Virus record (IMG/VR): IMGVR_UViG_2579778674_000010
Source: a virus
Taxonomy: Duplodnaviria > Heunggongvirae > Uroviricota > Caudoviricetes
Direction: 5' to 3' (one strand)
DNA length: 40,652 nt
In this document: one piece after another, positions 23,461 through 28,448 of the stretch
Layout: every line of letters begins with the position of its first letter
Position numbering within the stretch: the stretch's first letter is position 1
Translations under genes and position numbers: made by a program
Notes under the pieces: generated by a model
The model's database searches: none
Seen by the model: the letters and a program-made list of their open reading frames with translations, nothing else
What the model was told of the DNA's origin: nothing

Positions 23461-23740
23461 TTCTCAATCTCTCGATGGCGCAGCGCAGCAGATGCCAGTT
23501 GTTCAGGCTGACGAATAAAGTATAAATAAACTGGCTATGGTGTAAAGCCCCACATAGCATGAACAAACACTACATATCAAATAGCTGGTACAAGGATAGA
23601 AATACGACATTTATTATTAAAAACGATTAGATAAATTACATTTTAATGTTATGCAAAAGTTCTTTTTTATCATAACATTTCAATAAAAGCATTACAGATG
23701 CAATCATCCCGTCATCATCAATTATTTAAGGTGGTTAAAC

Positions 23741-23827: not shown

Positions 23828-24218
23828 AGTAGCCACATGATAAGTTGCTGGAATCATATTTCCCACTCAAGTCATTAACATTTGATAAGATATATCTAAA
23901 AGGACGCCTTTACATTATTTATGTGTATATAATTTATTTATATACACAGTAAAGGTATCCTGGGAAAATATTTATCGTTAAAAAATACATCATAAATAAT
24001 TAAGCTGAAATTTCAGAACACAACTAATATACACAATAAGGTTCAGTAACAATAATCTATGTGGACTACATCGAGATTTTTTGATTAAACTTTAATAACT
24101 TATTCCTAACACACAGAATGCATAAACTAAAAGTAAAACAAATAGTTATACGAAAAACAACCATATTTATTATATCTTCTCCTCTAATCAACATATCAAT
24201 TATGTGTTTCATAACAGC

Positions 24219-24262
24219 TTGACATAACCCTCAAAAACACGCATTTATAATGCATGTTTTTG
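24219..24262 (+). promoter_or_regulatory. Putative promoter with an overlapping inverted repeat upstream of the YeaR-like gene
   Basis: TTGACA at 24219..24224 and TATAAT at 24246..24251 (spacing longer than optimal). Imperfect inverted repeat tcaaaaacacgcat-ttataa-atgcatgtttttga spans the -10 and ends at the ribosome-binding site. Confidence 0.35.
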
Positions 24263-24273
24263 AGGAGGTGGTT

Positions 24274-24612
24274 ATGACACACAAGAGAATTCCTAAAGAT
24301 TGGGTAATCAAACGCTCAACTCCGTTCTTCACAAAAGAGAACGTACCTTCAGCGTTATTAACACATCATAATACAGCAGCAGGTGTTTTTGGGCAGTTGT
24401 GCGTAATGGAAGGTACTGTAACATATTATGGTTTTACTGATGAGAATGCTACTGAACCGGAGATAAAAGTAGTCATTAATGCTGGCGCTTTTGCAACAAG
24501 CCCACCACAATACTGGCACCGTGTTGAACTAAGCGATGATGCTCAGTTTAATATTAACTTTTGGGTCGCTCCAGACTTCTCGGGCGAAAAAGTCTATAGC
24601 ACCAAAAAATAG
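24274..24612 (+). CDS. YeaR-like DUF1971 protein
   Basis: ATG at 24274 preceded by GAGGAGGTGG. MTHKRIPKDWVIKRSTPFFTKE...GQLCVMEGTVTYYGF...AGAFATSPPQYWHRVE...FNINFWVAP aligns in my recollection with E. coli YeaR (RSTPFW..., SVMHGAV.YLGY, AGQFAVFPPEKWH, FNIDFFVAP). Confidence 0.7.
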   Translation: MTHKRIPKDWVIKRSTPFFTKENVPSALLTHHNTAAGVFGQLCVMEGTVTYYGFTDENATEPEIKVVINAGAFATSPPQYWHRVELSDDAQFNINFWVAPDFSGEKVYSTKK

Positions 24613-24641
24613 ATGATCATATTAAAAATGCTTTAACAGTC

Positions 24642-24680
24642 AGACCCGGCAGGGCTATCCCCGACGGGTCTCATTTTTGT
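24642..24680 (+). terminator. Hairpin plus U-run after the YeaR-like gene
   Basis: agacccg...cgggtct (7-bp stem with an inner GGG/CCC stem) followed by catttttgt. Confidence 0.4.
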
Positions 24681-25374
24681 AAATATATTGGTTCTACATT
24701 GACAGGAGACTTCAACCATAAGAAGTAATCTGAATACTTGAGCAATAAATTTACTTAAGATTAATGAGCGCACCTTGCCGGACAAAGATAAACCAAGGTA
24801 ACACCTTTTTTCTAGCCAGTATGTAATCAATCAGAAAGCCGCTCCATAAGAACAACAGCAAGACAATAAATTGCCATTACAGCCGCAATAGCCAGCGCAC
24901 ATTTGAGAACCAGCACGACAACCCCCTGTATTAGACGCACACCAGTCCTGATAAATATGAGGCTGTCTCGTCAGTGATTCAATACAACTATTGGGTATAG
25001 TTTCTGTGATTTTATTCTGTAGAAATGGAACACAACAACCAGTCACCACCAGCACTTCTTTAAATACGCCAAGTCCGACGCAAGCTAACCTTCTAGTCCG
25101 CTTTGAGCGAAAAGCGGACAGGAACATTCTGGTTAATAGATATCAATGCTAACAAAAAAGCTCCCGATGGAGATTTTGAAACCGCTTCCACATAATGAAA
25201 TAAAAGGATTTATTTCTGGTCATGCCCACACATTGACCACGTCGAAGTAAGTAGCTCCGCTTCGCGGAGTTACTTAAGATAATTTCTATGTAGTTCCATG
25301 CTATGATTTAATTTTCAAGTTACAAAATCTAAATCTACAAATGTCCATTTGGGTGTAAAATTACACAATCCTAT

Positions 25375-27700
<2,326 letters not shown>

Positions 27701-28001
27701 TTTAATTACCTTATATATCCAAACTCTTAATTTTCTCTTTTTTACCATAGGATTAATCCAAAATAAAGACCTTGTTGACTAAACCCTCATGTACAAAATG
27801 CACACTTACTCAAAAGGATCTGGAGGCAATCTCGACCTCCATGATTTAGTTCCTAGGGATAAGCAGAAATCTAGCACTGGATTAAAATTTAAAAATAATA
27901 ATCAATAGGTTATAATGGTTTTTATTCGCATCCATGGGATCTGCTGCTGCCCGCATGATGTTGGATGCGACGGCGCTGGCACGACCTCACCCGGTGAAAC
28001 G

Positions 28002-28448
28002 ATGAAACGCGAAAGGGTTGTTCTTCGGGAAGGTGCAGTTGGACTTTCAATCGATGACGTTGCAAAAGAGGCTGGCGTCAGTAAGGCAACGGTAATGTAC
28101 GATCATAAGTCAAAGCAAGATTTGCTCAGCGATCTCATCAGTCGCCTTATGCCAGTAGAGGAGGAACGTGTTCAGCAAGCGATAGCGGAAAGTAATAATA
28201 CCCCACATCCCGCACTCTATGGGCGAATTATTTCAGCCAGTAATGCTCTCAGTCATACTGAGAGAGCAGTAGTGCTGGCGGTCAGCGAATCGTTAACTAA
28301 CGATACGAATATCAGGGACACCATGCGTTCCTGCACAAACAAAGATTTGGATGAGATAAAAAGAGGACCAAAACCAGACGTTGCCGTCCTGGTATATTTG
28401 GCGTTATCTGGTATCTACTGCCAAGAATTTTTTGATTTTTACAAATGA
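28002..28448 (+). CDS. TetR/AcrR-like HTH protein, possibly truncated
   Basis: LSIDDVAKEAGVSKATVMYDHKSKQDLL resembles the TetR N-terminal HTH signature. Only about 148 aa from ATG 28002, shorter than typical TetR proteins. Divergent from the adjacent three-gene operon. The Cys-rich track extension from 27915 was not adopted. Confidence 0.4.
   Translation: MKRERVVLREGAVGLSIDDVAKEAGVSKATVMYDHKSKQDLLSDLISRLMPVEEERVQQAIAESNNTPHPALYGRIISASNALSHTERAVVLAVSESLTNDTNIRDTMRSCTNKDLDEIKRGPKPDVAVLVYLALSGIYCQEFFDFYK

Follow-up and report, generated by a model that had tools for sequence, protein, structure and literature searches.

A DUF1971 gene with a predicted NsrR operator in a Rac-like prophage of Escherichia coli

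The 40,652-nucleotide (nt) stretch of tailed-phage DNA (Caudoviricetes) held as IMG/VR record IMGVR_UViG_2579778674_000010, here called the window, carries on its plus strand a small gene of the DUF1971 family, with its own predicted promoter, ribosome-binding site and terminator, and with a palindrome lying across the promoter. The window shows 100% identity to a lambdoid prophage of Rac-like type that is integrated at ttcA in E. coli APEC E12049. For the DUF1971 gene, the best-supported mechanism of control, and probably the correct one, is repression by the host regulator NsrR, relieved by nitric oxide (NO), with binding and induction both predicted from the DNA sequence.

The DUF1971 gene and its control signals

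The DUF1971 gene is the sole plus-strand gene between a minus-strand DUF1367 (ninB-like) gene and a minus-strand SIR2/HAM1/deaminase operon. The G+C content of this stretch is 27-41%, vs about 49-54% in the flanks, with 41% in the gene and values down to 27% in the spacer upstream. A plus-strand gene embedded among minus-strand genes in an AT-rich island is what the original prediction had described, along with a list of signals that can now be placed as follows:

24219-24224, plus strand: -35 hexamer TTGACA, read from the sequence, in the same column as the invariant cTTkACA of promoters of the Kluyvera/Leclercia group
24229-24265, no strand assigned: extended palindrome, 37 base pairs (bp), with 17-nt arms and a TAT centre, containing the operator and the first GAGG of the ribosome-binding site
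24236-24258, no strand assigned: predicted NsrR operator, 11-1-11 inverted repeat AACACGCATTT-A-TAATGCATGTT, best match to an NsrR matrix in the window
24242-24251, plus strand: -10 region, CATTTA (24242-24247, 17 nt from the -35 hexamer) overlapping a perfect TATAAT (24246-24251, 21 nt)
24262-24271, plus strand: ribosome-binding site GAGGAGGTGG, core GGAGG at 24264-24268, 5 nt before the ATG; GGAGG is kept at this position in orthologues
24274-24612, plus strand: DUF1971 coding sequence, 112 amino acids (aa), ATG at 24274 and TAG at 24610-24612, STM1808/3DL3 lineage
24642-24678, plus strand: predicted intrinsic terminator, hairpin at 24642-24671, then CA and TTTTT (24674-24678)

The promoter had been proposed as TTGACA with TATAAT. 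Both hexamers are present, but they do not make a canonical promoter because the spacer between them is 21 bp, outside the range of 16-18 nt. By homology, TTGACA would pair with CATTTA, leaving TATAAT 4 nt further downstream. A transcript from either candidate -10 would have its first nucleotide within the palindrome's right arm, and a leader of 16-20 nt carrying the Shine-Dalgarno (SD) sequence. Both hexamers fall inside the predicted NsrR site, an arrangement with which the orthologous promoters agree, and for that reason occlusion by NsrR would work with either.

The strong ribosome-binding site that had been claimed is present, and the anticipated terminator, a hairpin plus U-run, is also there: its stem of 7 bp (AGACCCG/CGGGTCT, 24642-24648 / 24665-24671), with inner GGG/CCC pairing, folds at -19.4 kcal/mol (z = -2.1), and was missed by a simple terminator scan because of its internal loop. 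The terminator is conserved in the allele typified by the prophage of strain ST70, and that typified by phage vB_EcoS-666R9 (666R9) has a diverged yet related hairpin. An alternative start at ATG 24250, used in the annotation of phage 666R9, was rejected: it has no SD sequence and lies inside the operator, and orthologues start at the equivalent of 24274.

The 112-aa protein matches PF09313 (DUF1971 / TehB-like N-terminal domain) over all of the model (positions 1-80 of 80) with 92 bits against a cutoff of 23.1 (E = 2.3e-26). RefSeq lists the same coding sequence as WP_000149055.1 under the name “TehB family protein”. Against the full-length TehB model (NCBIfam, 289 positions), only residues 11-106 match, with 49 bits vs a cutoff of 303; since this is only the N-terminal third of the model and far under its cutoff, the prophage protein is a stand-alone domain protein rather than a methyltransferase or TehB. 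The closest solved structure is PDB 3DL3 from Vibrio fischeri (E = 3.5e-59, residues 1-111 aligned), a structural-genomics entry named “tellurite resistance protein B” that carries no functional assignment. The counterparts of H32 and H82 in YeaR, 3DL3 and Haemophilus influenzae TehB are also histidines, and the ..HN.. and ..WH..E motifs of the family are present.

The original designation “YeaR-like” holds at the level of the family but not of the lineage. The E. coli YeaR protein (yeaR-yoaG; PDB 3BB6) belongs to the same Pfam family, shares both histidines and has an NsrR site over its promoter; it represents a separate DUF1971 lineage, however, and the 41% identity between K-12 YeaR and the prophage protein is below orthologue level. 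Identities of 75-82% are found instead to chromosomal proteins of 112-113 aa in Kluyvera, Leclercia, Enterobacter, Pantoea, Citrobacter, Klebsiella, Raoultella, Salmonella, Vibrio, Photobacterium and Shewanella. The Salmonella orthologue (113 aa; loci L033 and L081) is 77-79% identical over 112 aa and in L081 directly follows nhaB and dsbB; in S. Typhimurium it carries the name “cytoplasmic protein”. The prophage gene is best read as an intact copy of this second enterobacterial DUF1971 lineage, that of 3DL3 and the Salmonella gene after dsbB. The E. coli chromosome proper lacks that lineage.

The Salmonella gene, presumably STM1808, resembles the prophage gene in having H32 and H82 at the same positions, in being a single-gene unit, and in having an NsrR box (AAGGTGTATATTAAATACATATT) over its predicted -10. 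It differs in occupying a fixed chromosomal locus (nhaB-dsbB-STM1808) and in a G+C content of 51% vs 41%; its box is centred at -39, while the prophage promoter is of the Kluyvera/Leclercia type, with the box at -27 and a degenerate left half-site.

Unlike yeaR, the prophage gene has no yoaG (DUF1869) partner downstream: the terminator follows its stop codon, and the next annotated gene is the convergent komC, 760 nt off. In chromosomes of the Kluyvera group (e.g., L008 6400-6573), DUF1971 is followed by a hairpin and then by a conserved Cys-rich open reading frame (ORF) of 57 aa (MMSFF...VDYGEQECC...), which may form an operon with DUF1971 like that of yeaR-yoaG. This ORF is absent from the prophage.

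The predicted NsrR operator and its alleles

A symmetrised position weight matrix for NsrR was derived using the 26 different 11-1-11 sites that Table 4 of PMC5320621 gives. Its top match in the whole window is AACACGCATTTATAATGCATGTT at 24236-24258, which scores 19.55 bits and is centred on the dyad axis of the palindrome. By chance this score is expected 0.005 times per window and 0.003 times in the AT-rich island, and none among 300 first-order Markov simulations of the island scored as high. Compared with leave-one-out scores of the 26 published sites it ranks about sixth (yeaR 20.8, c0118 20.2, ygbA 19.7, hmp 16.8). The original prediction had compared GCATTT / AATGCA elements in the repeat with NsrR half-sites and suggested a weight-matrix scan as a check; both elements turn out to be part of this 23-mer. 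Validated NsrR operators (ytfE, hcp, hmp, ygbA) share its 11-1-11 geometry, its GCATTT / AATGCA cores and its predicted overlap with the -10, and 19 of 23 positions match ytfE. The window site departs from them in having C for a conserved T at left-half position 5 and in a symmetry that extends to 37 bp. The published NsrR site of chromosomal yeaR in K-12 (AAATGGTATTTAAAATGCAAATT, from the same source) is in the equivalent promoter position; yeaR is also NarL-dependent.

Conservation of the repeat in homologous loci, whose absence was to count against NsrR control, is also found, and this comparison is the decisive evidence. An NsrR box scoring 17-29 bits precedes the gene in 53 of 80 fetched DUF1971 loci, its centre lying 27-39 nt from the ATG, or 55 nt in one Photobacterium. 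These 53 comprise 50 enterobacterial orthologues, two Photobacterium, and a Shigella prophage whose copy is identical to the window. The box comes close to the consensus in most of them (e.g., AAGATGTATTTTAAATGCATCTT or AAGATGTATATTAAATACATCTT), the equivalent site in chromosomal orthologues scoring 22-29 bits; in one further locus the box lacks a single base pair at its centre. Of the Vibrionaceae, the group from which 3DL3 comes, and the other marine loci in the set, most have no upstream NsrR box. For 45 of 55 boxed loci, the best-matching sigma-70 promoter has its -10 within the 23-mer, at positions 7-12, and its -35 17-18 nt upstream. In a multiple alignment that sets the window beside the Kluyvera/Leclercia group, the same columns hold the -35 (cTTkACA), the box, GGAGG and the ATG; the gene has therefore come into the prophage with its native NsrR-type promoter attached.

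Upstream of the same promoters in Kluyvera, Leclercia, Enterobacter, Pantoea, Pseudescherichia and Buttiauxella (L004-L025) is a conserved Fur-box-like element (GATAATGAGATTTATTATC), about 75 nt before the ATG and just upstream of the -35, with 13-17 of 19 consensus matches. This suggests dual control by Fur and NsrR in these closest chromosomal orthologues.

Three major alleles of the operator are found in E. coli, all keeping the core GCATTTATAAT(G/A)CAT, with single-base changes in rare variants:

Allele A (window): AACACGCATTTATAATGCATGTT, 19.5 bits, in 143 complete genomes exactly and 145 with 1-2 changes, the commonest in E. coli
Allele B (phage 666R9 type): AAGGTGCATTTATAATGCATGTT, 25.6 bits, in 119 complete genomes, counted as the 90-95% identity band of a 61-bp operator query
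Allele C (ST70 type): AAGGTGCATTTATAATACATGTT, 24.5 bits, in about 51 complete genomes, counted as the 80-90% band of the same query

Allele A is derived, since orthologues read AAGATG or AAGGTG at the left end, and by its matrix score it is also the weakest of the three. Its left half-site scores 7.9 vs 14.0 in the other alleles. It differs from allele B by two 3-nt replacements, GGT to CAC (24238-24240) and ATG to TGA (24261-24263), which are mirror-placed about the dyad axis and always linked, with no intermediates in 36 loci. The left-hand replacement gains two pairs and loses one, taking the half-site from 14.0 to 7.9; the right-hand one brings all three of its positions into pairing with the left arm, extending the palindrome to 37 bp and into the SD sequence. 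Dinucleotide replacements are also frequent in the spacer upstream of DUF1971.

One possible consequence is that the operator of the window is a decaying relic, its left half drifted and the gene either constitutive from TATAAT or barely expressed, with no useful control by NO. The allele is 6 bits below the others, with a C unseen at half-site position 5, further variants are found in TATAAT (T24251C) and in the SD sequence, and the promoter spacing is non-canonical. Against this, 19.5 bits still exceeds what hmp and other validated sites score; the right half, strong at 11.5 bits, outranks 40 of 52 known half-sites, and single half-sites are reported to be sufficient (Partridge 2009, as cited in PMC5320621). 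Allele A is also the commonest in E. coli. The coding sequence itself is under purifying selection: alleles A and B differ at 12 of its positions, yet the protein changes only at T55A, two residues of the C-terminal tail and the stop codon. These mostly silent differences, and an ORF that is intact in at least 455 genomes, argue against a decaying gene. A relic is considered unlikely, and repression by NsrR, if perhaps weaker than from the other alleles, is preferred.

The inverted repeat was originally put at 14 bp, imperfect, overlapping the -10; it is real and larger. Its arms (24229-24245 / 24249-24265) are complementary at 16 of 17 positions, and the RNA form folds at -21.9 kcal/mol (z = -6.1), which none of 200 shuffles equalled. 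Could the palindrome act mainly as a nucleic-acid hairpin, instead of a protein operator or besides being one? In transcripts beginning upstream of 24229 its 17-bp stem would tie up the first GAGG of the ribosome-binding site and prevent translation, or it might make transcripts from one strand or the other more stable or cause pausing in them, the antisense phage early transcript among them. The strength of the fold, the right-hand replacement that pulls the SD into the stem, a promoter-like plus-strand site upstream at 24028-24056, and the fact that the other allele also folds (-16.9 kcal/mol) are all in keeping with this. The gene's own mRNA, however, would have no such hairpin, since transcripts from either candidate -10 begin in the right arm; there is no U-run after the stem on either strand; the outer pairs are polymorphic (G24264T in 2 of 3 fetched near-window variants); and in orthologues the NsrR box is retained while neither the outer symmetry nor the SD pairing is. 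No Rfam family matches, the only hit being a sub-threshold microRNA-precursor match that is meaningless here. A primary role as a hairpin is improbable, though the stem might still affect read-through transcripts, and the palindrome is better viewed as an NsrR operator with additional symmetry around it.

The outer 7+7 bp of symmetry is specific to the window allele, and is not strictly maintained there, since sub-variants of allele A alter the outer stem (G24264T), TATAAT (T24251C) and the SD sequence (A24266G). An improbable proposal is that allele A, rather than drifting as an NsrR operator, was remodelled by the linked mirror replacements into an SD-pairing, near-perfect 37-bp palindrome. 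This might give two layers of control, a weakened operator making the promoter leakier or sensitive to lower NO and a hairpin silencing translation of read-through transcripts, or it might reflect quasi-palindrome template-switch mutagenesis fixed in the phage population. Origin of both trinucleotides in a single template switch was considered and rejected as not parsimonious: both arms have changed, and the left cluster is CAC, not the templated CAT.

Another regulator might also own the palindrome: the TetR-family protein encoded in the same AT-rich island 3.3 kb away, a phage repressor, or Fur, given the element upstream of the -35 in the closest chromosomal orthologues. That the palindrome is longer than an NsrR site would fit such an assignment, but its core fits the NsrR consensus, and the non-phage chromosomal counterparts have near-perfect NsrR boxes. 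The TetR candidate was rejected, as the gene travels with its neighbouring operon outside prophages (L109, where there is no DUF1971), and prophages without TetR keep both DUF1971 and the operator. Fur was rejected as well: the orthologue element is at -75 and not at the palindrome, and the window has 12 of 19 matches in another place, which is chance level. An operator for some regulator other than NsrR is very improbable.

Several points nonetheless weigh against control by NsrR and the function that goes with it. A consensus promoter scan called no promoter at TTGACA/TATAAT, and CATTTA, at 17 bp from TTGACA, is without the key final T. The left half-site AACACGCATTT is weakened by a C at position 5 that is seen in 0 of 52 known half-sites, and NsrR binding alone does not explain why the palindrome reaches 7 bp past the site on each side. 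The sites from which the matrix was derived are themselves partly computational predictions (PatSer). A literature search found no paper describing the prophage DUF1971 gene or its regulation. The identification of the Salmonella gene after dsbB as STM1808 is an assumption, made from gene order, LT2 numbering (nhaB STM1806, dsbB STM1807) and the conserved histidines H32 and H82. STM1808 reportedly binds zinc, in a biochemistry that involves H32 and H82, and contributes to growth under nitrosative stress.

If NsrR does control the gene, events in a lysogen might run as follows. The gene's own sigma-70 promoter would drive transcription, which would run antisense to the early operon of the phage, itself repressed. 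Bound at 24236-24258, the host's iron-sulfur NO sensor NsrR would cover the -10 region and the predicted start and block RNA polymerase; NO would nitrosylate its cluster, the repressor would leave, and a short-leader mRNA with GGAGG would be translated, ending at the hairpin and U-run at 24642-24678. The product, by analogy with STM1808, would be a small metal-binding protein that keeps H32 and H82 and aids growth under nitrosative stress. PMC7527575, citing Karlinsey et al. (2012, Mol Microbiol 85:1179), places STM1808 in the NsrR regulon as a putative cytoplasmic protein and gives it a role in virulence.

Prophage context, distribution and significance

The minus-strand genes of the prophage run in the order ydaS/T/U/V, DUF1627, DUF977, the island, DUF1367 (ninB-like), DUF1364, a Q-like DUF1133 gene, lysis genes, trkG, and head and tail genes. 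Set against other prophages and phage vB_EcoS-666R9, 23000-24609 proves to be contiguous backbone. Next to it is a variable cargo slot, which begins at the DUF1971 stop codon, or at 24987 in one lineage, and ends at about 28693, before the DUF977 gene; it holds the anti-phage system Kongming and TetR in the window, QueH in strain ST70, and Hok/Gef and KilA-N in strain E686 and in phage vB_EcoS-666R9. The DUF1971 gene is independent of these neighbours: TetR and the Kongming genes komABC occur without DUF1971 (in L109, a non-prophage locus), and DUF1971 occurs without them in other prophages.

The DUF1971 cassette was found in 466 of 5426 complete E. coli genomes (~9%), from avian, swine, bovine and human isolates among others, and in 3 of 50,697 phage records, all of them E. 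coli phages of Rac-like type. The adjoining DUF1367 gene is in 1329 genomes, and the related prophage of strain GS04 has hokD where DUF1971 would be. Since DUF1367 is far more widespread and hokD can occupy the DUF1971 position, the DUF1971 gene is accessory, as expected of a moron. The description of a self-contained moron stands as regards the predicted signals of its own and its absence from related prophages; it needs refining in one respect, for on these alignments the gene forms the border of the conserved backbone, beside a variable cargo slot, and does not act like a cassette that moves freely.

The resemblance to known phage morons (lambda bor/lom, HK97-type, Hendrix and colleagues) lies in a predicted promoter and terminator of its own, opposed orientation, distinct composition and patchy presence. 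Unlike typical morons, the prophage DUF1971 gene seems to be wired to a host stress repressor through a co-captured promoter, and it is part of the flank of a cargo slot. The gene is interpreted as a lysogenic-conversion gene of the Rac-like prophage, acquired together with its native promoter. Because the predicted NsrR site has been retained across that promoter, the phage probably gives its host an extra NO-inducible protection gene.

NsrR operators, DUF1971/STM1808 and phage morons are each known already, so that this case of lysogenic conversion is tidy rather than unprecedented. Salmonella, Citrobacter, Klebsiella, Kluyvera and relatives have a chromosomal STM1808-type gene under probable NsrR control; about 9% of complete E. 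coli genomes regain it by way of a Rac-like prophage, predicted operator attached. If both the regulation and the protection are true, this would be a clean example of how a phage can hand its host a stress-regulon member with the wiring already in place; the NsrR regulon would vary between strains through prophage content, and where NO is abundant, as in the inflamed gut, in macrophages and in the urinary tract, the gene would be a candidate contributor to fitness. The three natural alleles (19.5, 24.5 and 25.6 bits) form a series for relating NsrR half-site quality to level of repression.

Neighbouring genes and spacers

The three-gene operon at 25375-27700 on the minus strand is the Kongming anti-phage system, with an adenosine deaminase (PF00962, KomA), a HAM1-like protein (PF01725, KomB) and a SIR2_2 protein (PF13289, KomC). 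The published functional residues are found at the same numbering: KomA H15/H17, KomB N9/K12/E15 and KomC H146 (bioRxiv 10.1101/2024.12.20.629578). PADLOC 2.0 (2023) has no model yet for Kongming. The TetR-family gene (28002-28448, plus strand) is divergent and lies beside the Kongming operon both here and in the non-prophage locus L109, where they are next to AbiH.

The second-best match to the NsrR matrix, AAGATCCATTTTAATTACCTTAT at 27692-27714, lies over the komA start codon and scores 15.85 bits (left half 11.8, right half 3.9), with 0.04-0.09 such matches expected by chance in the island. With one good half-site and that many matches expected by chance, it is probably fortuitous, and no NsrR site is claimed there.

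Between the DUF1971 terminator and the end of komC, some 700 nt (24680-25374) have no annotated gene. Within them is a Cys-rich, unannotated minus-strand ORF of 98 aa (24831-25127) that has no Pfam match. Homology of this region with the ST70-type prophage ends at 24986, and it may be a remnant of earlier cargo.

On the other side of the gene, the 800-bp spacer between the ninB-like gene and the DUF1971 promoter is non-coding, with 27% G+C. A minus-strand ORF at 24066-24212 was treated as non-coding, having no SD sequence and no RefSeq annotation. The spacer also contains two inverted repeats of its own: an imperfect one of 19 nt at 23640-23684, and a perfect one of 11 nt at 23922-23948, TGTGTATATAA / TTATATACACA, with a 5-nt loop.

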